DNA of 64,000 nt from IMG/VR virus record IMGVR_UViG_2529292828_000009; one strand, written 5' to 3'. This document shows positions 42,717 through 61,400 of this stretch, in pieces; within the stretch, counting starts at the first letter, position 1, and every line of letters begins with the position of its first letter. The stretch comes from a virus (taxonomy: Duplodnaviria; Heunggongvirae; Uroviricota; Caudoviricetes). The notes under the pieces were generated by a model that did not search any database, was not told the DNA's origin, and saw only the letters and a program-made list of their open reading frames with translations. A program made the translations under genes and the position numbers.

Positions 42717-43367
42717 TTAATTTGATTTATTCGCATCCATCAACGCTTTTAACTCCTCCGGCGTAAAAGGTGGTTTGCGTCGGTGCAACATCGCATGGCA
42801 ATTAGGACACACAGGAAGCAAATCATTAACTGGATCCAGCAGGTAATCCTCTTTAACGGCTGAAAGCGGCACCAGGTGATGCATATGGATAAAGCCCTCA
42901 GCGATATCGCCATAGATCTTCACCAGATCAACGCCGCATACGTTGCACTGGCATCCGTGATATTCGACTGCTTTCTCGCGAGCTTTTTTATCGCGTTCAT
43001 AGCGGTTTACCGTCACCTTTATCGCCGCACCTTCAACGTAGGTCCCCTGCGACGGCAACTCATCCGGGAACAGAACATCGGCTATGGGAGCCGCAGCGGC
43101 TTTATCCTGATGAATATGAAATCCCTGATCTATAAGTAGTTTGACGCATTTAGATTTTATTCCGCCGGTGAAATCCGCAGGGGTAAATTGCGTCCCCGTC
43201 ATCAATGTCGCTGCGATGCCAGCAATCGCCTTCGAGGGGTAACGTCGGCCATGATATTCAATTTCATACAACCGTGCAGGCTGGAACTGATGAGTTTCTC
43301 CCGCATCCCATAAATGAATAGCTTCGATGATATACCGCCGCGGAAGATGATCGGGGAGTTTATTCAT
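42717..43367 (-). CDS. HNH endonuclease family protein with uncharacterised N-terminal domain (possible restriction/defence nuclease)
   Basis: C-terminal CQCNVCG...HMHHLVP...CPNCHAMLH zinc-finger HNH motif. Confidence 0.6.
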   Translation of the reverse strand: MNKLPDHLPRRYIIEAIHLWDAGETHQFQPARLYEIEYHGRRYPSKAIAGIAATLMTGTQFTPADFTGGIKSKCVKLLIDQGFHIHQDKAAAAPIADVLFPDELPSQGTYVEGAAIKVTVNRYERDKKAREKAVEYHGCQCNVCGVDLVKIYGDIAEGFIHMHHLVPLSAVKEDYLLDPVNDLLPVCPNCHAMLHRRKPPFTPEELKALMDANKSN

Positions 43368-43446
43368 AGAGAATGTCCTTATACGTTCTCAGAACAAGCA
43401 GCAAAAAAACAAATGAGATCAAAGTAATATATCTTCACTTGCAGGC

Positions 43447-43689
43447 TTGAACAGCAGAAAATTTGCGAGCATGATCGCAATTATTTCACTGCCAGGGATA
43501 TCAATGGCTTCCAGTAAATCGCTACAGCAGGCAATTGCCAATATAAAAATCTGGCATAAGGGTGAACAGCGCGCACCGCATAAACCATTGTTATTGCTAT
43601 ACGTATTAGCGGGATACCTGAATGGACATCCACGCCTTTTCGATTATTGTAGTGGAACAGTCTACGAGGATGCAGTTCGAAGTGAGTAA
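43447..43689 (+). CDS. Hypothetical small protein, possibly a gene fragment
   Basis: 80 aa ORF, no strong motif. Confidence 0.25.
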   Translation: MNSRKFASMIAIISLPGISMASSKSLQQAIANIKIWHKGEQRAPHKPLLLLYVLAGYLNGHPRLFDYCSGTVYEDAVRSE

Positions 43690-43745
43690 GTAAAGGTTGC
43701 TGGAAACGATCAATGCCGCCATACAATGATATTTGAGGATCAACA

Positions 43746-43931
43746 ATGAGTAATAAAAACTACGAAAGTCACCGCAAAGCGATTGTTAGTAAAGGTATAC
43801 CACCCGCTCTATTAAATAGGCTCACCAATTCGGATGTTCAGGTGATCAATACCTTCTTAACACGAGTGAGCAAACTGGAACTATCTCAACAAGAGAAAGA
43901 CTGGATCATAAAAATCATCTCTATGGTTTAG
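43746..43931 (+). CDS. Hypothetical small protein, possibly a gene fragment
   Basis: 61 aa ORF. Confidence 0.25.
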   Translation: MSNKNYESHRKAIVSKGIPPALLNRLTNSDVQVINTFLTRVSKLELSQQEKDWIIKIISMV

Positions 43932-44131
43932 AGAATTTCAGCCTTGTAGCCTTTCAAGGGTTTTGTGTGGGTACAAACATTATCGAATCGGGATATAGCC
44001 GCAGCTGTAGCTGTATCCACATCAGTAAGTTGATGTAGGTTGACTTAGGTTGAGCGAAAAATAGCGAAAAGCCTTGTGTGGCGCGGATTTCAGTCATAAA
44101 AAAACGTCCGTTGACGTCTATTGATGTTCCG

Positions 44132-44167
44132 ATGGTGCGAAGGTGCGAAGGTGCGAAGGCCGGACTC
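44132..44167 (-). repeat. Degenerate att-type direct repeat (tRNA 3'-end-like) with three tandem GGTGCGAA octamers
   Basis: TGGTGCGAAGGTGCGAAGGTGCGAAGGCCGGACTCG; last part matches the repeat at 55785..55808. Confidence 0.5.
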
Positions 44168-44519
44168 GCATATTCATTTAAATTGTTGTAAAAAATGGAT
44201 TTTATTAATAATTAATTCAATTATGCCCCCTTTTGTGCCCCCTCCATTCGCTGTTCACATTTTGATTTTTGTTGATTATTTATCCAAAAATTATCGAAGA
44301 AATAGTCAATCCAGTTAGGTTCCGTTAAACGGATCCAAACCGGGACTTGACTCAACAAAAAATACTTTTTTTTCGCAAAACCATGCACACTATTCACTCT
44401 GCAACTTTTAATTTATATATCAATTGGTTATGTATTAACAGTTAGGTGAAGAGTGAACTGCTATCTCTACATTCGTACGTTTCCAATAAGAAACCCGGCA
44501 TCAGCCGGGTTAGTTGTAA

Positions 44520-46844
44520 TTATTTGATTGTTAGCTCATCACACTTGGGAAGCCAGTCTGCATTACTTTCCTCTTTTAAAGTGAGGTTAGTCTGCATTCC
44601 CTGATTAGTTCGCCGCTTCTCATAATTTAGCCCGTATTCCTTCAGCATAACTGGTAGCCCTTTGCCAAACATTGTCAGGCTAAGGGTATTTTTAAAGCCA
44701 TTAGCCTCCATGTATACGAGATAGGCATGGTAAAGGTACGTACGTGGCTGGCGCGGGACAATATTGGCGTTCCCCATAAACATGCCGTTGGTGTCAGGTA
44801 ATGCCTCAAGGTAGCCACAAAAATCAAATGCTGGATCAGCATCACGCTTGATGGTGAGAGCCTCATCAGAATTCTGCTGCGACTGAAGCAATGTTCTGGC
44901 GCTCATCGGATCGCTGAAACGCTGCATGAGCTGACGAACAATCACAGCCAGTTCTCGTGCAATTTTATCTTTCAACTGCGGATCGCGTTCTTCCGGTGCT
45001 ATCTGCTCAGGAAAATGCAGAATAACTCTCCTGCGGGACACACCACCACTGCGATCAGTGAAGCGCATAGGATTATTATTTACGGCCAAGATAACCGCCG
45101 GAATATGTGTTGAATAAGCATTCTGATATTTGGGGTCCACAGATACTGCATCGCCACCAGTTATAGCCTTAAGCCCGGCGCCGTCGCCGCTCCACTTCTC
45201 CTGATCAGGCAGGCGAATAAGAGAAAAACCTATCAGAGCCGCACGTTCTCGCGGGGACTCCAGCGTTTCAATGGTCGCAGAGGTGGCGTTATCCTCTCCA
45301 GCAAGCATGGTCGCAATTTCAGCCAGAATACTTTTGCCACTTCCACCAGGGCCAGTCACTTCCAGAAAGAGCTGCCAGTCATAACGGTTCGCCAGCACCA
45401 TAAATAACGCTGCAAGAATAATGTCGCGTTTTGCTGGCTTGTGTCCGGCGGCCCGGTCCAACCAACGCCAGAATGCCGGGGCATGAGTTTCAAGCGTTTC
45501 CCCCTTTACCGGTGGCGTGAAATCGACTTCACACAGGGTACGCAGCCAGTTCTCTTTACAGTGCGGACTAAAAAGCCCTGTTCGCGTATCGAGAACGCCA
45601 TTACGAAAACCAATCAGATGACGTGACGGATTTTGCTGCTGCGGAACAATTAACTTTAATGTTTCCACCAGTGAGGCAATTTTTCCTGAGGAAAACGGTG
45701 CCCCGAGGCGCTGGAAAAGGGCTGCGACATCTCGGGCAAAATCTGACTGAGAAATAACTTTCCACGCTCCAGACTCGTAGCGGGATAAAAGCTGCCCGTT
45801 CGGATCAACCGCCAGTGCATCCCTGTAATGCTCCCGAACCCTCTGAGCTTTTTCGCTGACACTCATCGCTGTGAATTCTGCTTCACTCATTGTGTCGAAA
45901 GGACTGGCGTTATGTGGCTTCAAAGCCTCAAGAATTGCCTTCCGGGTGGATTCCTCTCCGTATTGGGTAAGCGCATCATTCCAGTCACCAAAAACCGGTG
46001 GCAGCACAATGTCACACTGACTCGCTTTTGCAGCAGTTTCAGCCCTGTTCTGGCCTGAACCATTCAGATCGCGGTCCGCTGCAATAATTAACTGATATCC
46101 AGGATACTTATTATGGGCAACGCTGCTCAGAGAAAGAAAGTTGACCGACGAAAATGCCACCATGACGGCTTCTCCTGTCAAATAATGAATGGTAAGCGCC
46201 GTGGCGTAACCTTCCGTAATCCAAATCCTTCTTACAGAACTCCCGCCCCCTTCTATCAGATGATAGGCCTCCTTAACCTGACCTCCTTTAAGAAAACACT
46301 TGCTACCATTGCTACTGATAAGCTGAATATTCACCAGCTCCCCGTCAGCGTTATAGAGTGGGACGATCAAATCACCGGGGCGGAACATCACACCACCGGC
46401 CTTATGAGCTGAAGTCAGCTCATGGCAAATATGCTCCGGGAAACCTTTATGTGTAAGATAAGTGTTTCCGGCAGATTCACGCGAGGCTTGCAGCAGTCGC
46501 GCGGCAAGTGCTGCCGCTGCATCTTTCCCGCTATCGGTATCGGCGGTTAACGTCCTGACCTCGGAATTAACTATAGACAGATCATGTGTCAGTCCATGTA
46601 TCCTGTCAGCTGCTTCACTGATATCCACATTCAGTGCCCTGGTGACAAGCGCTAAACCATCCCCGGCTCCGCACTGATTGCAGAACCATGTTCCGCGTCC
46701 TTCCTGATCGTCGAAGCGAAAACGATCTTTACCGCCACAGACCGGGCAAGGCTGATGGCGATTTTTCAATATATTCACGCCCAGCGCTGGCAGAATCTGA
46801 GCCCAGTGACCGCGGGCAGCCTTCACGGCCTGACTGACTTTCAT
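44520..46844 (-). CDS. P4 alpha-like primase-helicase (start at internal Met)
   Basis: Zinc-binding CPVCGGKD...CNQCG N-terminus, central primase region, C-terminal Walker A GPGGSGKS. Confidence 0.85.
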   Translation of the reverse strand: MKVSQAVKAARGHWAQILPALGVNILKNRHQPCPVCGGKDRFRFDDQEGRGTWFCNQCGAGDGLALVTRALNVDISEAADRIHGLTHDLSIVNSEVRTLTADTDSGKDAAAALAARLLQASRESAGNTYLTHKGFPEHICHELTSAHKAGGVMFRPGDLIVPLYNADGELVNIQLISSNGSKCFLKGGQVKEAYHLIEGGGSSVRRIWITEGYATALTIHYLTGEAVMVAFSSVNFLSLSSVAHNKYPGYQLIIAADRDLNGSGQNRAETAAKASQCDIVLPPVFGDWNDALTQYGEESTRKAILEALKPHNASPFDTMSEAEFTAMSVSEKAQRVREHYRDALAVDPNGQLLSRYESGAWKVISQSDFARDVAALFQRLGAPFSSGKIASLVETLKLIVPQQQNPSRHLIGFRNGVLDTRTGLFSPHCKENWLRTLCEVDFTPPVKGETLETHAPAFWRWLDRAAGHKPAKRDIILAALFMVLANRYDWQLFLEVTGPGGSGKSILAEIATMLAGEDNATSATIETLESPRERAALIGFSLIRLPDQEKWSGDGAGLKAITGGDAVSVDPKYQNAYSTHIPAVILAVNNNPMRFTDRSGGVSRRRVILHFPEQIAPEERDPQLKDKIARELAVIVRQLMQRFSDPMSARTLLQSQQNSDEALTIKRDADPAFDFCGYLEALPDTNGMFMGNANIVPRQPRTYLYHAYLVYMEANGFKNTLSLTMFGKGLPVMLKEYGLNYEKRRTNQGMQTNLTLKEESNADWLPKCDELTIK

Positions 46845-46867
46845 TCCTGACATGACGCAGTTCTCCC

Positions 46868-47191
46868 TCAGTGTAAAACCGGCTTTTTGATGTGACGGAC
46901 GCATAACTCATCCATTACGGCTATTCCGAGCTGGGAGAGTGCGGGACAGGACATTAGAGGGCCGTATTCCATCAGGTCTGAAAGCAGGGCGCAGGCGATT
47001 TCCATGCCTTTTGTTTGCCCGTGCTGTCGCAGATAAAATCCTTCAAGCTCACGGGCAATAGCGGTTTCAATTTCATCCAGAGTGAGCTGCAGATGGCGGT
47101 TTTGCTGATAGCAGGCACTCAACCAGGCGCAGGCTACCGCGCGGCGATACAACGCTACCCGAAGTGAAAGGGAAAGAGTGCGTGATTTCAT
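46868..47191 (-). CDS. Hypothetical protein of the P4-like left operon
   Basis: 107 aa ORF directly upstream of alpha. Confidence 0.4.
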
Positions 47192-47412
47192 TGCACCACC
47201 TCCATGTTCATGAGGTCATCCTGGCAACGCTGTACCACGCCATCAAGCTGCTCTGTCATCAGATAAATCAGGGAAACCAGTTGTTCACATTGAGCACTGG
47301 CAGGTTTTTCGTAGCAATCCTGAAGAACAGCCATTCCAGTGACAAACTCTCCCACGTTACGAAGATGCTTCAGGCGGAGAATATCGTCATAAGAGATTGC
47401 GGCGTGATTCAT
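47188..47412 (-). CDS. Hypothetical small protein (position equivalent to P4 epsilon; start at internal Met)
   Basis: ORF between immunity region and alpha operon. Confidence 0.35.
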
Positions 47413-47599
47413 TAGATCACCTCCCGGACAGGCAGGCGAGCAGCAAGACAAAGCACATACTCATGGACCAGTGAAAGACGTGCATGATGCTCATTGCTGG
47501 CGATGATACGCAGCATACTGATACGTGGTTTACGTTCTGCACGACGAACGGCGGCAAAAACAAATATAAATTGAGGATGTGACGGGGCGAGGATCGTAG

Positions 47600-47870
47600 C
47601 CATAAGGGCAACCTCCAATAAGTAGCGGTAAATGCCACCACCGGAGTTCCTACGCTCATGGGTGGTGACCCGAACGGGGGTAGGAATACCGGCCTTATTG
47701 GAAACCGGCCAGCCCGAAGGCTGCCCCGCCCGGACCACCATTATCTGAAAGGGGCTAAGGTATAAGCACCGCAGCCCGAAAAATGGGTGTGCCTGAGCAA
47801 CGACGTAAAAAAAGACGCACGGCGCGTCTGGTGTCGCCAATAAGTAACTCGGGTTCCTACGCCCGGCAGC
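47600..47870 (-). ncRNA. Candidate P4-type CI-like immunity RNA region
   Basis: Two direct copies of CCAATAAGTA...GGNGTTCCTACGC (~47615-47655, ~47837-47862) flank a complementary segment GGGGGTAGGAATACCGGCCTTATTGG (~47676-47702); hairpin + T-run on minus strand at ~47796-47828. Confidence 0.4.
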
Positions 47871-47956
47871 CGATTTTGCGGCAGCGGGAAAACTATACCT
47901 GGAAAAGATATCAGGACGCAAGCCAGAAAAAAGGAGATGAGACTGCAAAGCAAGTT

Positions 47957-48217
47957 TCACGCATGGCCTCCTTGCTCGCGGGCAGCAATTCGCGCCGCCA
48001 TCCATGCACTGACCTCCGACTGTACCCAGGCCACATTTTTTCCACCCAGGGATATCTGCTGCGGGAAGGCATCGCGGCTGATAAGGTCGTAGATGGTTGA
48101 ACGGGATAGCCCGCAAAGGTGCATCACTTCAGGTAATCGTATGAAGCGCTCCTGCTGAGCCGGAACCGGGAGCACCGGAGCAGCTGGTGCCGGGGTGGAA
48201 ACGGAAATACTATTCAT
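47957..48217 (-). CDS. AlpA-family transcriptional regulator
   Basis: 86 aa; [23 protein letters not shown] typical of AlpA. Confidence 0.8.
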
Positions 48218-48860
48218 CTGGCTACCTCTCTAATATGTTTACAACAGTCCGGGCAATTCCATGCGGATTCAGGTAGCTCCTTATTATGTTTATATAAGCG
48301 GCTCGCGCATGCTTTATTTATTTTGTGTGAAATGTTGATTTCTCAAAAAATAAAACAGCTAAAAACCGTATGAAACGAACAAAAACAAACAATTCCTTTA
48401 TGGAATATAATAAGGAGCATCAATAATAAAAAAGTCTATTACACTAGGCAGGATCACAGCTCAAATCTGAACCAGCCCATATCATTCAGGGCTTTACATC
48501 ATAAGCACTAAGACAACACCTGATTAATAAAAGAGCCAAAAACGGCCAAAAATAAACAGCTCACCATATGTATCAATAAATCCGATGATTAAAGAAATTA
48601 AATTACCATCTTACTTCCGCATGTATCCGAATGTGTTTAATGAACATCAGACAAATTCATTTTTATGAATATTTTCCTGAAATGCAACTGAGTGCAGGGA
48701 GGTTGAATGTTCAATTATTAAACAGATATAAGACATCTTTTATTCTTTACATAGAATATGTATTGAATACTGGTGAATATTGGTGAGGAGAAAAGATCCA
48801 GTAATAAACTGAAATAAATATCGCGACTTATATGAAAAAGAAATATATGTTTAATTTTAT

Positions 48861-48970
48861 CTCTGTGAACAGTCATGAACAGTAGATGATCACTTTAATT
48901 AAAACACTACACCACTTAACCACATGTATTTACTATATTTTTATTGAAGTGAACAGTAGTGAATAGTATG
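48861..48970. repeat. Cluster of GTGAACAG-like octamer repeats (candidate alpha-binding iterons)
   Basis: gtgaacag / atgaacag / gtgaacag / gtgaatag within ~110 bp of AT-rich intergenic DNA. Confidence 0.35.
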
Positions 48971-49122
48971 TATTAAAGGAAGCGTGTAGATCAGACATGA
49001 CACCTTTCTCTGGCTAGCCAGAACAAGGTCATTGTTCAGTCACTGACACAATCCTCCTCGGTAGTGCGCTTGTATGGACCCCGGCACAATTGACACAACA
49101 ACAAAACACTACCGGAGCAGCC

Positions 49123-49875
49123 ATGACAACTGTTAACCAGATCTCTGATGCAAACATTACCCCCACCCTCCCGCCGAAAATTCGCGAAGCGGTGGAAAAA
49201 GTTAAGGCAGCAAAAGCTGTCTGGCAGGAAGAACGGCGAAAACAAACCGAAGCTGCTGCAATGACTGAAACTATCCGTAAACGTCAGGAAGATACAAAAA
49301 CGGAGACGCAGGCGCTTAATGATGAATGGCGAAACCTGTTTCGTGAGAATCAGGGGAATATGACGCCACGAATGAAAAAACTGCGGGCAGAAATCGCCCT
49401 CGGACGCGAAACACTAGATGAGTTCGAAGATTTGCTGGCTGCTCAGGCTGCAGAAAATGAATTCCTGCCATGGAAAACTGCGGATGCTGCAAACCGCTAC
49501 ATCAGCGAACATAATCACCTGATTGAAACTCATGCAGTGTGGCTCTGGAATGAGTTTATGAAGGAACACGGCCAGAAACTTATTCAGATCCTTGGACTGC
49601 TGAAAATGACTCTGGGCCGAAGCGCATCTTCTGTTATCGGTGTAGTTCATACCGTAAACGACCCCGAAAGTGTGCTGAAGCAATTTATCAGCGAGCAACT
49701 CACCACTCCGGCACTGTTCTGTAACGTATCTTCAACGGATGATATTGCCCTGCCGGGGATCAGCATTTATGCGGACGATAAAGCCATACAGGATGCCAGA
49801 CAATCACCCAGCCCTGCAGCACGTTCCCGGATGCTTAAACAGCGTGACATGGCTAAAGGGGGCGAGAAGGAATGA
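49123..49875 (+). CDS. Sid-like capsid size-determination protein (putative)
   Basis: Coiled-coil-rich ORF directly upstream of psu; GGAG RBS before internal ATG. Confidence 0.5.
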   Translation: MTTVNQISDANITPTLPPKIREAVEKVKAAKAVWQEERRKQTEAAAMTETIRKRQEDTKTETQALNDEWRNLFRENQGNMTPRMKKLRAEIALGRETLDEFEDLLAAQAAENEFLPWKTADAANRYISEHNHLIETHAVWLWNEFMKEHGQKLIQILGLLKMTLGRSASSVIGVVHTVNDPESVLKQFISEQLTTPALFCNVSSTDDIALPGISIYADDKAIQDARQSPSPAARSRMLKQRDMAKGGEKE

Positions 49876-50426
49876 ATACCGGAACCATTACTCAGGAAGC
49901 TCTCAACGATTACCGCGCGGCAATAAAAAGCTGGCTGACACTACGTAATGTGCAAAGTACCAGCCAGCTTCGTCTGGCTGCTTTGCTGGATACTGAAGAA
50001 AAACCCGCAGCATATGCCAGCCAACTTGAGGATCTTCGTGAGCGTCTTGCACTCCTCGAATGGCAGATTAACTGTGCCGCCCGGGATGGTCTTTATGCTC
50101 ACCAGATTGTGCTGGAAAGCTGTGTTACAAGCGCAACTGAAAACTTCATGAGCGAGCATGGTGATGCACTCACTGACGCTCTGGCTCCTTTTCTTTGTGC
50201 ACCATACGGGCTTGAGGCGGCAATGAAAATATTACGAACCGCTGTAGCCCGACAAACGGAAGTCCGTACTCCGGTAATTTCAGCAGCATATAAGAGCATT
50301 ATCGACGAAACCGGATTAACGGTGGATGCATCAATGCGCGCTGATGCTTCAGCCAGTTTCACCCCGGCACAACATAAAGTTTTCCTGGCCCGCCTTAACC
50401 GACTTAATGAAAAAGGAGTGTGCTGA
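49872..50426 (+). CDS. psu: Polarity suppression protein Psu
   Basis: 184 aa; segments resemble P4 Psu as recalled (FTPAQ..., HGxAL..ALAP). Confidence 0.75.
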   Translation: MNTGTITQEALNDYRAAIKSWLTLRNVQSTSQLRLAALLDTEEKPAAYASQLEDLRERLALLEWQINCAARDGLYAHQIVLESCVTSATENFMSEHGDALTDALAPFLCAPYGLEAAMKILRTAVARQTEVRTPVISAAYKSIIDETGLTVDASMRADASASFTPAQHKVFLARLNRLNEKGVC

Positions 50427-50427
50427 T

Positions 50428-50700
50428 ATGGCCCTGAAGTGTCCTGAATGTGGCGCGGTCGCTCACGCCAGAACCAGCGCCTATGAAGCTCCGTCGGTTA
50501 AACGCTCATGGTATCAGTGCCAGAATCTGGAATGTTCCTGCACATTTACCGCACTGGAAAGCGTGGATACGATAATTATGAAGCCTCGGTGCAATGAACA
50601 GGAATCAGACAAAGCAAAAATACCGGAAAAACAACAGCAAACTCTCAATCGCTATGGCTCCGCGTCAAAGCTGTCAAACCGTCAGCAAATTCCTGTCTGA
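50428..50700 (+). CDS. Ogr/Delta-family zinc-finger late transcription activator
   Basis: CPECGAVAHARTS...YQCQNLECSCTF pattern as in P2 Ogr. Confidence 0.8.
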   Translation: MALKCPECGAVAHARTSAYEAPSVKRSWYQCQNLECSCTFTALESVDTIIMKPRCNEQESDKAKIPEKQQQTLNRYGSASKLSNRQQIPV

Positions 50701-50723
50701 TTAGCAAAATACGACCACGAAGT

Positions 50724-50747
50724 CCCGGTCCAGTACCGGGATTTTTT
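50724..50747 (+). terminator. Rho-independent terminator after delta
   Basis: CCCGGT-loop-ACCGGG hairpin followed by T-run. Confidence 0.5.
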
Positions 50748-50791
50748 ACGCCTTTTCCCTGGCTGGCCTGAGAGCGTATGAGTGCATATCT

Positions 50792-50830
50792 ATGGCGCAT
50801 GAAAACGCATGAGTCTCATGCGCCATTTTT
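50792..50830 (+). terminator. Second hairpin + T-run
   Basis: 11-bp stem ATGGCGCATGA/TCATGCGCCAT followed by TTTTT. Confidence 0.4.
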
Positions 50831-51306
50831 GACGCGAAAGCCCTTGTGTGGTGGCTTCTGAGACGATTTACGGGGTGCATGAAAACCAGTCTGTTAAGCG
50901 AAGCTGGCAGGCGGGCGGGGCTGCTCGCGCTAAGGGAGAAAATAGCAAACTCAGCCGCGCAGGCGGTGACAATGATTGACGAGATACTGGCTGGCAGTTG
51001 CTGAAATCTCCGCAATGATTCAAGAACTGCAGTGTATCGATGCAGCACACGTAAACTGAGCGGCGCTACGGGTAATATTTATAGATTTGTCATCCTTAGT
51101 GAGCATGGTTCTCACTCTTGTAACCTCTACCTGTACAAGATATCGTAAGACCTCAGATCAAACATGCACGTGTATTAAAGGTGGGCAAGCGTGGCGGGAA
51201 GATAATTGTGCGCACTGTAGTCAAAGATAGGGATTGTGATTACTTTTTCTTCCAGCCGTGGTGTAGTAAATTATTGGGAACAAACTCTTAATGACATCAA
51301 TGGATA

Positions 51307-52605
51307 ATGATTATGACTACAAATCCGGACGGATACATCTCATTTTTAAAACCCGGTAGTAACGACTGGAAAGCATTAGATAGTAAATCGTTTATTTATT
51401 GGCGAGACTACATAACGAATGAAAGTTTAGAAGAGTCAGGAGATTCTATTTCTCCAGCACAATCTCTTACTGATGGTGAAAAGAAGGAGTTGAAAGACAA
51501 TCAGGCATATATAAACGAACTATTACTAAAATCATTACAATTCCCAAATCTTGCATTCTTCGCTGGGAGTGGTACTTCGCTTGGGGACGTTGGAGGACCA
51601 AGCATGTGGGATCTCTGGAAGTGTGCAATGTGGAGTGAATCTTCTATAAACGAGGATGGTCAATTAAAACCTGATGCTCAAATTGTTTGTGATAAAGTAA
51701 AATATAAAGAGCGAGAGTATCCTAACATAGAACACTTTCTTTCTAATTGTGAAGCATATTTAGCATTTCATGATGATGAAGAAGTGTTGAATTTTTTAAA
51801 TAAAGTTAAAACAATTATTTTAGACAAATGTCGCTCATTTATTGATGATGGCAACTGTGATCTTTCAGCTTACATCAATTTATTACAAAAAATGGGGAGG
51901 AGGAGAGTCAGAGATCCTAGACTAAAAGTTTTCACAACTAACTATGATTTAGCCTTTGAAACAGCTGCTTCTGAATTAGGAATGATGGTAGTTGATGGTC
52001 TTTCATATACAGGAGTTCGCAGATTCGATGGTAAATATTTTAACTACGATGTTGTTAAAAGAGATGAAAACGAGCATGAGTTTGTAGAGGGCGTATTCCA
52101 GTTATTTAAACTCCACGGTTCTGTAAGTTGGATAAGAAAGGATGGGCAAATATATGAATCCAGCCAACCAACAGCAACAAACGCATGTCTAATATATCCA
52201 GCGAAAGGTAAATATCAGCAAGCCTTTATTCAACCTCACTTAGAATTACTTTCAAGATTGTTAGATTTCTTGAGAAAAAGAAATAACTGTTTAGTTATAT
52301 CTGGATTTGGTTTCAATGATGACCATCTTTCTGAACCAATTTACTCAGCAATAAAATCCAATCCAAGCATGAGGTTGATTATAGTAGATTTCAAATGTGC
52401 AACTCATATTCGGAATAAAGGGGGGGACGGTTCTAGTAAATATTGGGATTTACTAAAACAACTCTCACTATCAGGTTATGACATTCACTTCATAAATGCA
52501 TCTTTCAGTGATTTTGTTAAATTAGTTCCCAATCTTAAAGCATTAACCCCAGCAGAACAGTTGGCTAAGGTAATAAAACAAGTAGGAGTTAACAATCAAT
52601 TATGA
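51307..52605 (+). CDS. SIR2-like NADase domain protein (candidate anti-phage effector)
   Basis: Motifs FFAGSGTS...GPSMW, TTNYD and KLHGS resemble SIR2-family NAD-binding/catalytic motifs. Confidence 0.75.
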   Translation: MIMTTNPDGYISFLKPGSNDWKALDSKSFIYWRDYITNESLEESGDSISPAQSLTDGEKKELKDNQAYINELLLKSLQFPNLAFFAGSGTSLGDVGGPSMWDLWKCAMWSESSINEDGQLKPDAQIVCDKVKYKEREYPNIEHFLSNCEAYLAFHDDEEVLNFLNKVKTIILDKCRSFIDDGNCDLSAYINLLQKMGRRRVRDPRLKVFTTNYDLAFETAASELGMMVVDGLSYTGVRRFDGKYFNYDVVKRDENEHEFVEGVFQLFKLHGSVSWIRKDGQIYESSQPTATNACLIYPAKGKYQQAFIQPHLELLSRLLDFLRKRNNCLVISGFGFNDDHLSEPIYSAIKSNPSMRLIIVDFKCATHIRNKGGDGSSKYWDLLKQLSLSGYDIHFINASFSDFVKLVPNLKALTPAEQLAKVIKQVGVNNQL

Positions 52606-54323
52606 TTAATACAACACTACAGCTTGGTATTTTGAGGGGCGACCTTAAGGTTGGAGTAGTCTCATCAATTTTTGCTCAAACAGTTAGAGCAAATTTAATC
52701 TATGCAGGGGAACTCAGCGGAACATATATAGAAGGTTGTAGATATGGAAAAGGAGAAGTTGGTGAAATATTATTAATAGAAGGACAACAATCTATTGTTC
52801 TTGGCCGTTTAATAGAGGTTAAATTACCAGAGCGAGATAGAGGTGAAATATCTGTCGGGTCTCAAGGAAACTTCAAAGTTGATGCTATCGGCATTATACA
52901 ACTTCTTGGAACTATTGATCCTTCAAATTTTAGAATTGATTCAGGAATCAAATCATATCCTCGATTAGGAGATCGAGTTTATTCTGCTCCCTTAGATTTT
53001 ATTTCTTTAATACCAGAATTAATTAATAAAGGAATTAAAGATAACGAGGAAGAAAGAATAGGTATTGTATTAGGCATTATATCTGGAGGGGCAACAAGTA
53101 TAGTAACTGTTGAACCTGATAAACTCTTCGGTCGTCATTGTGCTATCTTAGGAGCTACAGGCGGTGGAAAAAGTTGGACAACTTCCAAGTTAATTGAAGA
53201 GTGTTCGAATTACGAAAACTCTAAAACTATAATAATTGATGCAACCAGTGAGTATAGATCGTTTAAATCTGATTATTGTTTACATTACCATTTAGGTGCC
53301 CCAATAAATAAAAACATAAATTCTTTAGAATTTAGAATTCCACCTACCGACTTTGTTGAGTCAGACTTTATTGCCATGTTCGATCCTTCTGGAAAAGTAC
53401 AGGGTCCTAAGCTAAAAGAAGCGATAAAAAGCCTTAGATTAGTAGCTTTAGAACCTAGAATAGCAACCGATGGTATTTTAAAAAAAATCAATCAACCTAA
53501 AACAGATTATCGACGCGCAATGAATACTGGAGACAACTCTAAACTTGTTGATAATCCATCACAACCATTTGATATAACAAAACTTATAAAACAGATTGTA
53601 CAAGAATGTTGTTACGATAATGGAGATAATACTTGGGGAAACGCTGCAACTCAAGACTTAAGCTATTGCTCATCTTTGTTAACCAGAATTCAAGCAGTAA
53701 CGTATGCCAACTCGTTAAGGTCTGTTTTTAATAGTAACGAGGATATATCCACACTAGGTGAAATATTAGAAACTTTTTTACAATCTGATAAACGAGTCCT
53801 AAGGTTATGCCTAAGTGATGTTAGCTATGAGTTTTATGCTAGAGAAATTTTAGCCAATGTAATCGGCAGAAAACTTTTAACTTTAGCTAGGCTTGAAAAA
53901 TTCAGAACAAGACCGCTGTTAGTTATTGTTGATGAAGCCCATAACTTCCTTGGCAAACGGGTTGGTTCTGAAGATCATGCAATTAAACTTGACGCTTTTG
54001 AGATGATTGCAAAAGAAGGCAGGAAATATGGCCTTAATATATGCTTAACAACTCAAAGACCCAGAGATATCACTGAAGGTGTGCTTAGTCAAATTGGAAC
54101 CTTATTGGTTCATCGCTTAACAAACGACCGAGATCGAGAAGTCGTTGAGCGTGCATGCGGTGAAATTGATAAATCTGCAGCATCTTTTCTACCAAGTCTC
54201 AAACAAGGTGAAGTTGCTCTTGTAGGGGTTGACTTCCCTATTCCTATGACCATCCAGATAGATAAGCCAATATATCCACCAGAATCTGATTCTCCAGGCT
54301 ATTGCAATATATGGAAAAAATAA
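52602..54323 (+). CDS. HerA/FtsK-like ATPase (partner of SIR2-like protein)
   Basis: Walker A GATGGGKS, Walker B LLVIVDEAHNF; start overlaps upstream stop (ATGA). Confidence 0.75.
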   Translation: MINTTLQLGILRGDLKVGVVSSIFAQTVRANLIYAGELSGTYIEGCRYGKGEVGEILLIEGQQSIVLGRLIEVKLPERDRGEISVGSQGNFKVDAIGIIQLLGTIDPSNFRIDSGIKSYPRLGDRVYSAPLDFISLIPELINKGIKDNEEERIGIVLGIISGGATSIVTVEPDKLFGRHCAILGATGGGKSWTTSKLIEECSNYENSKTIIIDATSEYRSFKSDYCLHYHLGAPINKNINSLEFRIPPTDFVESDFIAMFDPSGKVQGPKLKEAIKSLRLVALEPRIATDGILKKINQPKTDYRRAMNTGDNSKLVDNPSQPFDITKLIKQIVQECCYDNGDNTWGNAATQDLSYCSSLLTRIQAVTYANSLRSVFNSNEDISTLGEILETFLQSDKRVLRLCLSDVSYEFYAREILANVIGRKLLTLARLEKFRTRPLLVIVDEAHNFLGKRVGSEDHAIKLDAFEMIAKEGRKYGLNICLTTQRPRDITEGVLSQIGTLLVHRLTNDRDREVVERACGEIDKSAASFLPSLKQGEVALVGVDFPIPMTIQIDKPIYPPESDSPGYCNIWKK

Positions 54324-54326
54324 TTA

Positions 54327-54346
54327 GTAGGGTCTTTGACCCTACT
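54327..54346. terminator. Bidirectional hairpin terminator between convergent HerA-like gene and int
   Basis: GTAGGGTC-TTTG-GACCCTAC with T-rich flanks on both strands. Confidence 0.45.
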
Positions 54347-54361
54347 TTAAAATTTTTAAAG

Positions 54362-55633
54362 CTAGATAGTTTTTTTTGCAAAGTCGTAGGGGGTTATATA
54401 TTCCTGAGTGTTAGCATCAAGATAATCGGCCCACCACTGAACCATTAAACGACGCTCATCCAAATGCTCTGAAGTATGAATATAAGCAGCCCTAACGCTA
54501 TTACGCTCAGAGTGGCTTAGCTGACGTTCTATCGCGTCATCACTCCACAACCCTGATTCGCCCAAAGCACCGCGCGCCATAGTTCTGAATCCATGCCCGC
54601 AAACTTCGGTTTTTGTGTCATACCCCATTGTGCGCAAAGCACTGTTAACCGTGTTTTCACTCATAACTTTAGTTGCGTCATGATCTCCCGGAAACAGTAG
54701 CTCTTTATCACCACTAATCTGCTTAAGCTGCTCTAACAAAATCATCGCCTGCCGACTAAGCGGAACGATATGCTCCTCTTTCATCTTCATCCCACGGTAC
54801 GAGTAACGGACACCTTTAATTTCTTCTCGTTTTGCCGGTATACGCCAAAGAGATTTATCGAAGTCGAATTCATCCCAGCGAGCGAAACGCAACTCACTGG
54901 AACGCACAAAAGTTAGTAAGGAAAGCTCGACTGCAATCCGTGTCATTAAACGGCCACGATATGCAGCAAGACGTGCAAGAAACTCAGGGAAACGGTTAGA
55001 GGGTAAAGCTGGATAGTGTCGTGCTTTGGTTGTCGATAAAGCACCAGCCATATCACTGGCTGGGTTTGAGTCGATATAATCGTTCTGTACGGCATAACGC
55101 ATAATAGCTGTAACACGCTGCTGAAGACGCTGCGCGACGTCATGCTTACCACTGGCATCAACTTTTTTAATCGGGGCTAACAGGTGGCTTGTTTTAAGCT
55201 GGCGGATATCGGACGATCCGATATGAGGGAAGATATAAAGCTCAAGATAGCGAAGAACGCGCGCTCTATGGTCTTCACTCCAGCGCTTGTTACTGGCATG
55301 CCATTCACGAGCGATCGTTTCGAAAGTATATGCCCCCGATTTCTCGGCCTGAGCCGCTTTCTGCTCGGCTTTTGGATCAATACCCTGCACTAATAATCTT
55401 TTAGCTTCATCACGTTTTGCCCTTGCCTGGGCAAGTGTCACAGTAGGCCAAACGCCAAAAGCGAGGCGATCCTCTTTTTTGTCTGAAGGGCGTCTGTATT
55501 TCATACGCCAGTATTTAGATCCCTTGGCCGAAACCTCAAGATACAAACCGCCACCATCGGCCATTTTGTAGGTTTTGTCTTTTGGCTTTGCGGTCTCGAC
55601 CAGTCTGGCGTTGAGCTTCATTTGGGGGCACAT
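54362..55633 (-). CDS. P4-type tyrosine integrase
   Basis: 423 aa; C-terminal R...H..R...Y catalytic pattern; adjacent to att repeat. Confidence 0.9.
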   Translation of the reverse strand: MCPQMKLNARLVETAKPKDKTYKMADGGGLYLEVSAKGSKYWRMKYRRPSDKKEDRLAFGVWPTVTLAQARAKRDEAKRLLVQGIDPKAEQKAAQAEKSGAYTFETIAREWHASNKRWSEDHRARVLRYLELYIFPHIGSSDIRQLKTSHLLAPIKKVDASGKHDVAQRLQQRVTAIMRYAVQNDYIDSNPASDMAGALSTTKARHYPALPSNRFPEFLARLAAYRGRLMTRIAVELSLLTFVRSSELRFARWDEFDFDKSLWRIPAKREEIKGVRYSYRGMKMKEEHIVPLSRQAMILLEQLKQISGDKELLFPGDHDATKVMSENTVNSALRTMGYDTKTEVCGHGFRTMARGALGESGLWSDDAIERQLSHSERNSVRAAYIHTSEHLDERRLMVQWWADYLDANTQEYITPYDFAKKTI

Positions 55634-55784
55634 TTCTAATCGAAGTCAAGATGCCCCTAATTATGCCCCCAATGGCATCCGGATTTCAACGGACAATCTC
55701 GGACGACTCCGGACATAAGAATCACTGTACTCATTGAATTATAAGGAACAATTGGACTTTCTCGGATGATCTTGGAAGTGCTAA

Positions 55785-55808
55785 TGGTGCCGAAGGCCGG
55801 ACTCGAAC
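55785..55808 (-). repeat. att repeat: 24-nt copy of a tRNA 3' end (tRNA-Leu-like), not an intact tRNA
   Basis: TGGTGCCGAAGGCCGGACTCGAAC is the reverse complement of ...GTTCGAGTCCGGCCTTCGGCACCA; sequence beyond it does not continue as a tRNA. Confidence 0.7.
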
Positions 55809-56155
55809 ATCGCAACTATCCTTATGATCTTTAGTAATTAAAGCAATCTACATTGTCGATGATACCATCATTGATACCATCAGACCCGATTGATGATAAT
55901 CGAACAGTAATAAAATATGACTAAACAATTTATGCTTCAACATAAGATTGAATGCTTTGATCTACCATTTTAATGCAGTGGAAAAATTTTTAACACAATA
56001 CTTAAGAAAAATAATTTCATATAAAAACTACATTTCATTTCATATAGTTAACACACCAAAAACAACTGTATATAAACCCAGTAAAAAATGGTAGAATCAC
56101 TATTGTGTTCAATTGTTGAACATTTATAATACATTTGTCGGATAGGGGGGTGTTT

Positions 56156-56743
56156 ATGCAAAGGAACACATACAACAAAGTAGGTCTATACATCCTATCT
56201 TTAGCTATGCTTTTTGTTTTTATTATTATCCTGACTGCCAAAATCCCCTTTTGCTTCACTTCGGATTGTAGCTTCATAGGTTTGAAGAGACTTGTATTAA
56301 CAAATATTGTTCCTATTGTTTGCTTTGTATTTTTTCTATTTAGTATTTATTTTTATAATAGATTAAAAAACATAACAAAATACAATGGACAAGATAGCGT
56401 TAAAATAACATCATGTCAAAGCGAAAGCTATGAAAGTTTAACATTCTTAGCAACATACATTGTACCTTTTATGGGGTTTAGTTTTGAAGACATGCAAAAG
56501 AATATAGCATATCTTTTGCTTGTAGTAGTAATAGGCATTATTTTTATTAAAACAGACAAGTATTATGCGAATCCAACTTTAGCTCTGTTTGGCTTTAAAC
56601 TATACAGGGTAAATATACTACACCCAGGAAGTGGAGAAACAAAAAATCTGATAGCTATTTCAAATGATGTATTAAAAGTGGACGATAATGTTTATTATAG
56701 TTTCTTTGATGAATTTGTTTTTATAGCAAGGAAAAAAATATGA
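56156..56743 (+). CDS. Four-TM membrane protein, KwaA-like (putative Kiwa component)
   Basis: Four hydrophobic helices; GGGGGG RBS before ATG; ATGA overlap with downstream gene. Confidence 0.45.
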   Translation: MQRNTYNKVGLYILSLAMLFVFIIILTAKIPFCFTSDCSFIGLKRLVLTNIVPIVCFVFFLFSIYFYNRLKNITKYNGQDSVKITSCQSESYESLTFLATYIVPFMGFSFEDMQKNIAYLLLVVVIGIIFIKTDKYYANPTLALFGFKLYRVNILHPGSGETKNLIAISNDVLKVDDNVYYSFFDEFVFIARKKI

Positions 56744-57687
56744 CTACTCAGCAGTTAAAAGAAAAAATTTCAAAAATAATTGATAACTTTAGCGGAATCA
56801 GGGTTGTATTTACTACTACTGCTAATGAACTAAAGCTTTCCAGAATTGAAGGGAGTGCATTAAATAGCATAGCTGAAGGGTTTATTGACAAAATCAAAGA
56901 AGACATTATAAATAATGAAGATCTCACCTCACCATTGCTGTCCAATTTTGATGATAGAAAAAATGCCTTGTTTAAATTTGATTACGAACAATATCCTGAA
57001 GAATTTAACAAAATCACTCAGGCCATCGCTATCCCTCCTAACTCACAAGATTATTATAACCCTTTAAATAAATTCACAGATGTGAAAGGAATTATAATTT
57101 TAATAAGTGGAGATAACAAATGCCTGGCTCTTTATAAAAACAAAACTAACCTTGCAGTATTGAGAAATAGCAGAAAAATGTTTAATTTAGTCCCTGACCC
57201 TGATGGATACTTGAAACAACTCCCTAATGAGATATTACGGTTAGATTTCAATTATGATCTATTATCAATTGGTGAGGATTTTTACATTAAAAATCACAAG
57301 ACTCTTGAAACTCAAATGAAATTTCATCAAGTGATTGAAGCCCAGGCAGTTATTGCTTTAAATTCTTTACGGGATTCACTACTAATTGAAGACATATCAG
57401 GTTTAGAAAAGAGTTCGAGAGAAATTTCATTCGCTAGAAAGTTGGCAAAAATCTCCAAACATTCTCCTGTTTTGGGGAAAATAGATACTAAAACAATTAT
57501 CGATTATGTATCCCAACATAAATATTTATCTGCAATACTTCAGATTAATGAAGCAGGAAATAAGTTATTAATTAAAACCAAGACATCACAGAAGCATTTC
57601 ATTAAACTCATGAGCGATGATTATTTACAATCAGATCTAACTAAAATAATATACATGAGCATAGCAAAAGACAGATTAGATGAATAG
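56740..57687 (+). CDS. Soluble ~315 aa protein, KwaB-like (putative Kiwa component)
   Basis: Size and operon architecture match Kiwa; no motif verified. Confidence 0.4.
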   Translation: MTTQQLKEKISKIIDNFSGIRVVFTTTANELKLSRIEGSALNSIAEGFIDKIKEDIINNEDLTSPLLSNFDDRKNALFKFDYEQYPEEFNKITQAIAIPPNSQDYYNPLNKFTDVKGIIILISGDNKCLALYKNKTNLAVLRNSRKMFNLVPDPDGYLKQLPNEILRLDFNYDLLSIGEDFYIKNHKTLETQMKFHQVIEAQAVIALNSLRDSLLIEDISGLEKSSREISFARKLAKISKHSPVLGKIDTKTIIDYVSQHKYLSAILQINEAGNKLLIKTKTSQKHFIKLMSDDYLQSDLTKIIYMSIAKDRLDE

Positions 57688-57700
57688 AATTTTAAGTAGA

Positions 57701-57745
57701 AGTGACAAATATTATAAACCATTCTTGAAATATATTTGTCACTAT
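57701..57745. terminator. Inverted repeat between convergent genes (bidirectional terminator candidate)
   Basis: GTGACAAATAT ... ATATTTGTCAC. Confidence 0.35.
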
Positions 57746-57751
57746 TACTAA

Positions 57752-58423
57752 TCATTCGCGTGCTTGATTATTTATGCTGGATGTTCTAATTGTTGCCGAA
57801 TGCCAATACCCACCACTATATGTTCTTGCTATAGTAATAAATCCAGTACAGGTAATTACTGTCATTAAAATCAGGAAAATATAATAGAAATTAAGCGGAG
57901 CTTTCAAATCAAAAGGAGGTAACGAATACACCAGCAACCCTATCCATACAATAGTTATAAATAAACTAATAATTTGGTTTATCTTAGATACTGATATTGG
58001 AGATGGACCAGTAAGTAAATGAACCGAAAACTCTTTTATTCCTTTCGGTTTTGCACGAGATAACACCACTTTATATAGTGGACCATTAATATTATCTTCT
58101 AACATATCGACATGTTTTTCCCAGTTTCCCTGCCAATATTTACTACCACGGTTAACACAGAGCCAACCGAATGAAAATACAATTCCCAGTGAACACAGTA
58201 ATACGGATAAATCTGTCTTAGCTGTAGAAGAGGAAGTCTGTATAGCAACAAAACCAGCTAAAGTTGCCGCTATAAAAGTCCAGAAATAAGTTGCTCTTTT
58301 CCAGTAATGGTCTATCTCATATTTCCGTATATCTAAAGCCTGTAGCAGAGCATTCTTATTACAGTCTCTATCATTAAGAAAACGGCTACGATATTCCTCA
58401 TCTGAAAATGGAGTAATTGGCAT
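57752..58423 (-). CDS. Four-TM membrane protein co-oriented downstream of the RM fusion gene
   Basis: 223 aa; four hydrophobic helices. Confidence 0.55.
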   Translation of the reverse strand: MPITPFSDEEYRSRFLNDRDCNKNALLQALDIRKYEIDHYWKRATYFWTFIAATLAGFVAIQTSSSTAKTDLSVLLCSLGIVFSFGWLCVNRGSKYWQGNWEKHVDMLEDNINGPLYKVVLSRAKPKGIKEFSVHLLTGPSPISVSKINQIISLFITIVWIGLLVYSLPPFDLKAPLNFYYIFLILMTVITCTGFITIARTYSGGYWHSATIRTSSINNQARE

Positions 58424-58475
58424 ATTGATTTACCTCTATTTATAATAGTAAAAGAGGGGTCCCCCCCCCTCTTTT

Positions 58476-61400
58476 TTAGTTATTTTTAAACAAAACCTTT
58501 ACTATTCCATCTATATCCCTTAGGAAACTCTCGAAAGAGGATCTATTAGCCTTAGCTTCATGAGCCTTTTTTGAAAGTTCAGACAGCTCACGATGCTTTT
58601 TATTACCTTCATCATAAAGAGGAACATTAATTGGAGGTCTGATTTTAAAAGTTCTGCTATCACTGGACTTCAGAATGTACTCCCCAGTGATTGATGAGTT
58701 AAAAATAGCACAAATGTAATGTGCCTCATCCAGGGTAATAAATTTACCATCTTGCCTCTGAGATATACTCACAGCATGGTTCTGAAATAAAGGTCTCTTT
58801 TTGTCACCCCATGGAGTATCCATTTGACTCACAACTGCTGCTGCCCATTTAGTGTTATCACGAAAACAAACAAAATGATCACCATAAGTATATTCACCTA
58901 CACGAGCCAATGCGTAAAATGCAGTAATATTGCTTTTACCTATGATTTTGTCATTGTATCGAGTCTGCGACTCTAATAACTGTTTATTATTAATGAAATA
59001 GTCAGCCAACATAGGGCTTTCTTTAACAAGCTCATCTACAGGTATCGGTTTACGACTCAATTCTCTATATGGAAAGGGTACGAAGAACTCAACATCTTTT
59101 ACCCCAAAAGGTTCAATATTTGTTCCTTTAATCAGGGGGTATATATGCTTGGTTTCAGCAAAAATCATTTGTTTTGCCACTTTATACTTAGACTTGCCAC
59201 CCTGATAATTTTCAAAAATTGCAGTGTTGTTAGCTTTTTTTGTCTTAAATTTCCATAAGAATAATTCTTGAGGGAAAAATTCAATCCCTTCCCTGCCATG
59301 ATATTCGCAATATCCACTGATATTTCTGTAATCATTGAGTTTTTCGGAATCTGAAGCATATGTAAAGGCTGTATTGCTTACACTAACAGTGCCAGCGATC
59401 TCTTTACGGATAGAGAACTCATGCGAAATAGCATTAAAATGCGTATGCTGTGAGTAGCTATCAAGGCTTCTTCCGGTTTTATTTTTCGTCAAAAATGTTA
59501 AAGGTATCCCTTTTAAATAATCGACATTTTTTGACGAGAATAAATAAGTCGCAAACTTGATTGTAACAGGCTTGAATGGATGCCCGGATTCACTCCAGTC
59601 GTATACCTCTTGGAGATATAGTTTTTGGTTATCCCCAAAGTTAAACTCTCGAAATCCTTCATATGTTTGCTGGAAAAGGATATTTTGAGGCATAAGGAAT
59701 GCCAATATGCCATCTTTCTCTAACCAGTTTTCAGCAGATACATTAGAAATTAATGCACAAATGTTAAGGTTTATACCACCAGTAAGCCTATCACCAGAAA
59801 ATAGGCTCCTACTTAAGCATAAGCCTTTAATTCGTTCTCGATATCCTGCAGGTAAATTTTTCCAGTCAATCCATGGTGGATTACCAACAACCATATTAAA
59901 TTTGCCTAAGTTTGCAGTGGTCAAAAAATTAGTGACTATTCTAGCCCAAATTCCATTCCAGTCTCTTTCTTCTAGTTCGACAAACTTATCTGATAAAGTT
60001 TTTAATTTTTCATAAATGCTAGGAGAACTACTAATATCCCCACTTACTTCGATTAATTTTGCAAAAACACTATCACGATCTCGAAGTTTAATATATCGTT
60101 CAATATCAACAATTGCTTTTGAGAACTTATGAGAATCACTCAAAGCTTGAGTAGGCATCTCGATATAAATCGAGCCTTGCAAAGTATTTATTTCGTATCG
60201 CAAACAGTCAATGCCATCAATTATGACCTTTTCTGGAACATACGATGCGTCACCAAGATAAATTGGAATTTCAACTTCGCTACCTTCATCAAGCAAATGT
60301 GATATATTGATGAAATAGTTGATTCTTGCAGTTAAAGCTGCAAGAGGATTTAAATCAATACCTTTGACAGATGTTATGACATCTTTTAATTTAGCTTTGC
60401 TATCAGTATGAGTACGACTCAGAACTTTACCTATTAATGTAATTATAAAGGTTCCGCTACCACAACATGGATCAATTGCAGTCCAGTTGTTCTTATTTAC
60501 AACATGCTCTTCAGCAGAGGATATCAAATGCTCTGCAAGCCATTCAGGAGTGTAAAATTCTCCAAGAGAATGTCTTACTTTATCAGGAATAATGTTCATG
60601 TATAGATCTTTGAAAAGATCGTATACTTTTTCACCCTCTTTGAAAAGGTTTCCTTCCTCATATTCACTTAGTAATGAAAATATATTTTTAATACTAATGA
60701 ATATATCATCTCCCCATTGTTCCTTAGTACAATACCAAGAGAAAAAGTCACCTTCCAGCAGGTTCAAAATCCCATACTTCCTGAAAATAGCACCTTCTTC
60801 TAATGTGTATAAATAGTTTCTCATTGATTCAGAGTTACTATTGATCATATCTGAAAAATTATAATCATTTTCAAATACAAGTCCAGATAATGTTTTATAA
60901 GCTATTATTTTTACAATAATCGCATATGCAGTCTGGAGAGCATAAAGAACTTTATATTCATCATCGTTAGTAAGTAACCTATGACCAGCAATATCTTCAA
61001 GTGATAACTTTCGTTCTAAAATTGCTGTTTGCTGAGATTTATCATCATGTGCAAGTCTAAATAGCTCCTTCCATTCGTTGAAGAGCATTTGAGAGCGGCC
61101 CGTCATGTTATTTTCAAGAGCCGAAAGAAGATTACCTATTAATTGAGTTGTTAAAGATGGAGATCCATAGCAAAAATCATCAACGATGTTTTTTGGATGC
61201 AATGCCTTCTTATTCAAAAGAACTAAAAGCCCGCAAATTTTTTTAATTGCATTCTTATCAAGCGGTTGCAACTTTGATGTTAAAATGCCATCAGTATCAC
61301 GAATAAGGTAATTAATACCGTCTGTTAGCACTCCAACATAGCGTTGATTCCCTTCTAACTTTAAAGAATCAAGGTAAGCCTGGATTTGAAGCACAGCCTT

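Follow-up and report, generated by a model that had tools for sequence, protein, structure and literature searches.

Tandem arrays at tRNA genes, such as the leuX-linked KpLE2 of Escherichia coli K-12, grow by serial integration at one core: older elements are pushed distally, and partial copies of the tRNA lie between the units. Among the elements that target leuX is P4 (NC_001609). The defence hotspot of P4 adjoins cos, and the groups found there include SIR2 together with HerA (PMC9122126, Rousset et al. 2022). The Sir2-HerA systems of E. coli form several deeply diverged clusters (eight have been published); they are NADases, and all act as abortive-infection systems (PMC13434337). Here a locus of this kind is described from the IMG/VR virus record IMGVR_UViG_2529292828_000009. 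The window, the whole stretch of DNA that was analysed, is 64,000 nucleotides (nt) long, and its positions 44155-55805 very probably represent an intact, recently mobile P4-like satellite of E. coli, 11,637 bp in length counting one copy of the attachment (att) site, which carries a SIR2-HerA cargo and sits in the middle of an array at leuX.

Four lines of observation carry this reading: the anatomy of the element; its homologies; its precise presence or absence in different strains; and the three genomic configurations in which it and its neighbour are found. The element class, the hotspot and the type of cargo are already published, and identical copies are present in RefSeq, so the element itself is an ordinary and known one. 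Three points go beyond an earlier note that had been made from the letters of this DNA: a second island lies between the satellite and leuX; the left flank is an old remnant; and the cargo is a SIR2-HerA pair in the P4 hotspot.

Attachment-site repeats

One copy of the 24-mer TGGTGCCGAAGGCCGGACTCGAAC is present in the 64-kb window, at 55785-55808; the number expected by chance is zero. In minus-strand orientation the sequence gives the 3' end of the tRNA-Leu(CAA) gene leuX, and it matches leuX of genome D6 at 24 of 24 nt; leuX is full length both in D6 and in another genome, XDL. This exact copy lies 152 nt upstream of a P4-type integrase gene, and its first 20 nt are identical, over 20 bp, to the annotated P4 attP core TGGTGCCGAAGGCCGGACTC.

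The distal copy, of attR type, lies at 44133-44168 on the minus strand, just past the alpha gene, and reads TGGTGCGAAGG TGCGAAGG TGCGAAGGCCGGACTCG. It is a degenerate leuX 3' end: one C is lost, and the 8-nt unit TGCGAAGG is present three times. The exact stretch common to both repeats is 14 nt, GAAGGCCGGACTCG, at 44155-44168 and 55792-55805. The repeats are thus spaced by 11,637 bp, against a P4 length of 11,624 bp. The earlier note had described a tRNA-end copy in minus orientation just upstream of a P4-type integrase, a degenerate copy about 11.6 kb away beyond alpha, and a size like that of P4, and all of this holds; the start that it gave for the distal repeat, 44132, is corrected to 44133.

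That note had also implied that a repeat lies within a tRNA gene here. A scan of all 64 kb with ARAGORN detected no tRNA gene, so neither repeat belongs to a tRNA here, and the proposal that a resident leuX gene contains the 24-mer was dropped for the same reason. The bases 3' of 55808 (ATCGCAACTATCC...) are non-tRNA sequence. The proximal copy is a hybrid, formed where the satellite meets the next island, and it is this second island, rather than an intact tRNA gene, that follows the proximal core.

Taken by itself, the 14-mer repeat is not significant in 64 kb: by our own estimate, about seven same-strand pairs of identical 14-mers are expected, and the exact sharing between the two copies extends over 14 nt only. 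On that view the two repeats would resemble each other by accident, and homologous recombination would simply have shuffled a variable piece of chromosome. The case for att repeats is made instead by the match to the tRNA end and to the P4 attP core, the placement beside int and alpha, and the presence or absence of the segment among strains. Since the boundaries of presence and absence fall exactly at the repeats, as described below, the chance reading is already refuted, and we give it next to no credence.

Presence and absence among strains

The comparison set comprised 5,426 complete genomes. Segment 44100-55808 is covered to at least 80% in 21 of them, and at least eight complete E. coli genomes, from dog, pig, human, frog, pork and chicken, contain it with 100% identity over 11,709 bp. 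Three genomes are especially informative. In D6 the same element lies directly against an intact leuX, followed by ahr and yjgR, and the bases of 55785-55808 continue into the full-length gene; the far end is the same as in the window, both in its degenerate, triplicated core and in its left flank. In XDL the element likewise adjoins leuX, and its far end is a single-unit core, TGGTGCGAAGGCCGGACTCG, beside a different island with an integrase pseudogene. In BA22372 the satellite is exactly absent: the degenerate core, identical to that of D6, is followed by AAC and runs into ATCGCAACTATCC... and the Kiwa genes. This joint is the one to be expected of an empty site or of precise excision.

Alignment places the boundaries of presence and absence between strains exactly at the repeats. 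The earlier note had allowed that the repeats might match no tRNA 3' end, or that the locus might be colinear core genome. The repeats do match the leuX end, and the second possibility is ruled out by BA22372, which is without exactly this segment.

Together, these configurations show the satellite to be the middle unit of a tandem array, which comprises, in order, an old island remnant, the degenerate core, the satellite, the perfect core, an island with Kiwa, a type IIG restriction-modification (RM) enzyme and a relaxase, and leuX itself, predicted beyond the window.

In XDL (L004 3001-3020) the core shows the same loss of a C, with a single TGCGAAGG unit, beside a diverged homologous flank. 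The loss of the C may therefore be a trait of the attP of an older island family rather than a later decay.

Order of arrival at leuX

Because the triplicated core is identical in D6, BA22372 and the window, at least one integrase-type event, whether integration or excision, must have used the degenerate core. This raises the possibility that the satellite integrated not at leuX but at a secondary site of degenerate sequence, namely the att remnant at the distal end of an island already resident there, as in BA22372, and that the D6 state arose by later loss of the proximal island. BA22372 presents exactly the target that such an entry predicts (degenerate core, AAC and Kiwa island), and a crossover between this target and the inferred attP, within the 14 nt that they share, yields both junctions of the window. 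The opposite order, in which the satellite came first to leuX, the Kiwa island followed, and the BA22372 state arose by excision, gives identical junctions, however; the junction sequences therefore do not choose between the two. Moreover, the int end of the satellite adjoins tRNA-Leu in every RefSeq genome that was inspected (D6, XDL) or that was listed with a 100% identical int end. Entry at a secondary site is thus a realistic, if somewhat doubtful, account of how this satellite reached its present position.

Integration and excision machinery

Whichever island came first, the 44155-55805 element has the equipment of a P4-type integrative element. Its tyrosine integrase (54362-55633, minus strand; domains Arm-DNA-bind_3, Phage_int_M and Phage_integrase) is 95% identical to P4 Int over 414 amino acids (aa). 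The int-attP DNA is 88% identical to that of P4, and it is the sole part of the element that passes megablast against P4.

The putative binding sites for the integrase arm domain are disposed as in P4. Two P4-type copies, GGGGGCATAA and GGGGGCACAA, lie in the P' arm, on the alpha side of the core (44221-44242, minus strand), and correspond to the P4 repeats at 4151-4174; two more lie in the P arm, on the int side (55624-55670); and a further copy lies inside int (55328-55337), as it does in P4. The pattern GGGGGCAYMW has five matches in the window against 1.05 expected, and all five are these copies inside the element. An AlpA/Vis-type protein, excisionase and regulator, is encoded at 47957-48217 on the minus strand (PF05930, 4.2e-20; phrog_2790, excisionase) and has 64% aa identity to P4 orf88.

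Early operon and immunity RNAs

The alpha primase-helicase (44520-46904, minus strand) contains Pfam domains Zn_Ribbon_Prim, Toprim_3, D5_N, DUF5906 and Pox_D5; from the RefSeq start at 46853 it comprises 777 aa, of which 773 align with P4 alpha at 73% identity. Upstream lies a DUF5375 protein (46868-47191, minus strand; PF17345, 2.4e-48), the homologue of P4 orf106 at 70% aa identity and a member of what de Sousa and Rocha (2021, PMC8628076) call the cnr family.

The next position, held in P4 by epsilon and orf151, is taken by a small open reading frame (ORF) at 47188-47451 on the minus strand, 74 aa as annotated, which matches phrog_10110 (1.5e-40) and has no Pfam match. A 75-aa family is found in 61% of P4-like elements and is absent from P4 itself (PMC8628076, de Sousa and Rocha); the 74-aa ORF fits this family. 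A bolder proposal gives this protein a role: it would be an alternative helper-derepression factor of most P4-like satellites, and the satellite would have entered an island-borne degenerate pseudo-att site, as part of a habit by which P4-like satellites colonise distal island scars and build composite defence islands with Kiwa and RM systems by site-specific accretion. We consider this combination unlikely.

The Ash/cI-region ORF (47412-48116, minus strand; PF10554 Phage_ASH, 8.8e-33) has 63% aa identity to the P4 cI ORF; it is annotated at 47412-47960 as Icd-like and overlaps the immunity RNA genes. The P4 cI ORF is itself a PF10554 protein, and the true P4 epsilon belongs to PF25738. Two RNA genes lie within this region, both on the minus strand. 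The CI immunity RNA, of the C4 antisense RNA family, is at 47658-47745 and matches the full-length model (Rfam RF01695, 83.4 bits, gathering score 45); an isrK-family RNA, in the leader of the leftward early operon, is at 47808-47885 (RF01394, 72.1 bits, gathering score 50).

Beyond these genes, at 48760-48970, an AT-rich cluster of iterons (GTGAACAGT / ATGAACAGT / GTGAATAGT) resembles a variant of the P4 type-1 octamer GGTGAACA. The motif RTGAAYAGT has six matches in the window against 1.9 expected; all six are inside the element, four of them at 48865-48967. The cluster is a candidate origin of replication.

Late genes and a cos-like stretch

The late genes run on the plus strand. The first encodes a Sid-like capsid-size determination protein (49090-49875; phrog_6165, 2.2e-91), with a weak Pfam match to Psu and the RefSeq name 'phage capsid assembly protein'. 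The family name of phrog_6165 matches the sid name in the P4 record, P4 Sid itself not having been scored against that family, and the gene has no tblastn match to P4 Sid at 1e-3. Psu, for polarity suppression and capsid decoration, follows at 49872-50426 (PF07455, 2.7e-35; phrog_6366, 5.6e-70), and then Delta, a zinc-finger late-gene activator of the Ogr/Delta type, at 50428-50700 (PF04606, 1.3e-16; RefSeq coordinates from D6).

Where the conserved backbone stops and a variable cargo slot begins, at about 50880-50945, lies a cos-like stretch. Aligned locally and colinearly with the P4 cos junction, it reaches a score of 51; shuffled sequences score 25.8 +/- 4.0 (none of 500 reaches 51), and the highest score among 101 real windows is 50. 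Sensitive blastn of this region against the E. coli genomes matched 857 genomes, against 860 for the backbone query; the matches listed are all intergenic, and there is no sign of a helper cos among these E. coli matches.

In content and in order, therefore, the genes between the repeats follow the P4 layout that the earlier note had ascribed to them, and the CI RNA and the arm repeats at both sides extend the correspondence. By the seven-component definition of P4-like satellites (PMC8628076), the integrase, alpha, the psu/delta/sid block, AlpA/Vis and CI RNA are all found here; the 'epsilon/Ash' component of that scheme is matched by the PF10554 cI-region ORF, a profile distinct from true epsilon, PF25738, of which no homologue was found here. 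Where a cos site compatible with a P2-like helper is expected lies the cos-like stretch, in which the canonical 19-mer is absent.

The SIR2-HerA cargo

The cargo comprises two adjacent genes on the plus strand that form one operon, the HerA start overlapping the SIR2 stop by 4 nt. The first encodes an effector of the SIR2-family NADase type (51307-52605; PADLOC SIR2 PDLC04075, 7e-82; Pfam SIR2_2), and the second a HerA-family ATPase (52602-54323; PADLOC HerA PDLC04103, 1.7e-166; Pfam DUF87 and HerA_C). The SIR2 protein matches the SIR2 chain of PDB 8J4U over most of its length (2.3e-20), with the stretches FTTNYDLA and KLHGS in common; a published comparison takes 8J4U as the structure of Nezha, a Sir2-HerA system (PMC13434337). 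HerA matches solved HerA chains with values down to 3.5e-31. Judged by its sequence, the pair has the make-up that defines a SIR2-HerA system, and it may be expected to protect the lysogen through NAD+ depletion and abortive infection.

The slot in which the pair lies is variable. Similarity to the psu/delta/cos backbone extends through about 860 E. coli genomes and ends at 50921-50961, at the cos-like stretch, after which the sequences diverge. This SIR2-HerA allele is present in 22 of the 5,426 complete genomes, and the int end, at 99% identity or more, in 27. The P4 genes gop, beta, cII, epsilon, orf151 and sid gave no tblastn match at E 1e-3. The slot behaves as the published P4 hotspot does.

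An intact element or a remnant

Several results weigh against an intact and mobile satellite. The distal core is degenerate and shares only 14 nt exactly with the proximal one, which bears on the efficiency of excision. Neither Pfam nor tblastn found a homologue of the true P4 epsilon derepressor (PF25738) in the element; the exact P4 ori octamer TGTTCACC has no match inside it; and the 19-nt cohesive end of P4 and P2, GGCGAGGCGGGGAAAGCAC, gave no match with up to three mismatches allowed. The cos-like region matched none of 50,697 phage records by sensitive blastn. The window contains no P2-like helper, the only prophage in it being Mu-like. Finally, in 0 of the 5,426 complete genomes are the satellite and the Kiwa island joined as they are in the window, so that this arrangement has a single witness.

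The degenerate core, the missing epsilon homologue and the missing canonical cos end would also suit a cryptic satellite remnant, fixed, decaying and no longer mobile. Yet all core ORFs are full length relative to P4; the arm sites and the RNA genes are intact; the segment is 100% identical across at least eight complete genomes from varied hosts; and it is found in three junction contexts, with precise absence in BA22372. Such a remnant is, in our view, very improbable.

A model for the satellite

Helper dependence, cos function, excision competence and defence activity are properties that we infer from P4 biology and from the literature. In the model that results, Int would recombine a core of 20-21 bp that copies the leuX 3' end, leaving a copy of the core at each end of the element; the presence-absence polymorphism gives this step indirect support. 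The AlpA/Vis homologue would direct excision, with a predicted circular junction of ...GCTAATGGTGCCGAAGGCCGGACTCG/CATATTCATTT... and a predicted repaired chromosomal joint of degenerate core plus AACATCGCAACTATCC. In the lysogen, the CI RNA of the C4 family would hold the leftward early operon off. With a P2-type helper present, replication of the element by alpha would start in the iteron region, Delta would turn on the late genes, Sid and Psu would remodel the helper capsids to small size, and the genome would be packaged from the cos-like site. SIR2-HerA would meanwhile defend the lysogen, and thereby the satellite, against unrelated phages. The array as a whole would have been built by serial site-specific integration at leuX.

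The Mu-like prophage of the window was considered as the helper and rejected, since it is of the Mu transposable-phage type rather than P2-like, and Mu-type phages package by the headful and not from a cos site.

Neighbouring islands and the Mu-like prophage

Positions 55809-64000 form a second integrative and mobilisable island, which starts directly at the att core. It encodes kwaA (56135-56743) and kwaB (56740-57687); an 8xMP/RipA membrane protein (57752-58423); a type IIG RM enzyme of 1092 aa (58476-61754); a pair consisting of a DUF4160 protein and an antitoxin-like protein (62364-63135); and, at the window edge toward 64000, a relaxase. The stretch at 61.9-63.9 kb differs from the version in BA22372.

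In BA22372 the Kiwa island is about 19.7 kb long, is bounded by cores at L002 15017 and 34746, and has its own integrase. That integrase is flanked by short repeats, TACCATCA on the int side and GATACCATCA on the distal side, which are unlike the P4 arm repeat. At L002 34724-34747 the integrase end of the island carries another exact 24-nt leuX end, followed by other non-tRNA sequence, so arrays at leuX can be at least three units deep.

On the other side of the satellite, the left flank (42717-44131) is island debris: an HNH endonuclease (42717-43367) from the old island remnant and a fragment, which in D6 is annotated as a phosphorothioated-DNA-binding restriction endonuclease. Before the distal core there is also a stretch of about 130 nt whose homologue in XDL lies upstream of the integrase of another island.

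Further from the array, positions 1-31471 of the window are a Mu-like transposable prophage, the first 24 kb of which match Mu-type phages at 97-98% identity, with a MuA-type transposase (28153-30153), ner (30146-30373) and the c repressor (30543-31133). Its c-end terminus (...GTGAATCAATACA) at 31471 interrupts fimF about 37 codons into the gene. The break cuts off the part of the type 1 fimbria operon that lies downstream of it, which we take to be fimG and fimH, from fimA-fimD.

Uses of the locus

The locus offers a clean textbook case of a phage satellite that delivers a defence cassette. It also illustrates how serial integrations at one tRNA gene can stack defences: SIR2-HerA has Kiwa and a type IIG restriction enzyme as its neighbours. 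Satellite alone, neighbour alone and both together all occur naturally, and these three configurations are ready controls for assays of excision and integration. Moreover, the missing epsilon raises the question of how most P4-like satellites wake their helper.

Comparison with known systems

P4 and this satellite are alike in their att core, leuX target and 11.6-kb length; in the order of the matched genes (int, att, alpha, orf106, cI region and vis, then the sid/psu/delta block); and in the CI RNA of the C4 family and the Int arm repeats. At the DNA level the likeness is looser, alpha, orf106, the cI region and vis aligning at 69-74% only with more sensitive blastn. The two differ in several respects. 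The cargo is SIR2-HerA here and gop, beta and cII in P4; the late order is sid-psu-delta here and sid-delta-psu in P4; Delta is a single Ogr-like unit of 90 aa, against 166 aa in P4; epsilon (PF25738) and orf151 are missing and the 74-aa ORF takes their slot; and the cos and ori repeats have diverged.

The KpLE2-type array of K-12 differs in its units, which here are a satellite and a mobilisable Kiwa/RM island.

With the Sir2-HerA (Nezha) abortive-infection systems (PDB 8J4U and relatives; PMC13434337, PMC11472057) the cargo shares a two-gene operon of SIR2 and then HerA, an overlapping stop and start, and SIR2_2 and HerA/DUF87 domains. The solved systems are only distant relatives (E 2e-20 for SIR2 and 1e-30 for HerA, at partial coverage).

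The element as a whole agrees with the P4-like satellites of the Enterobacterales that have a defence hotspot beside cos (PMC9122126, PMC8628076): each of the seven components, as defined by profile and with the PF10554 ORF standing for epsilon/Ash, is present, they lie together in the usual order, and a variable slot lies between cos/psu-delta and int. The element departs from them in a rare cargo allele and in not being adjacent to the tRNA here, and in nothing essential.

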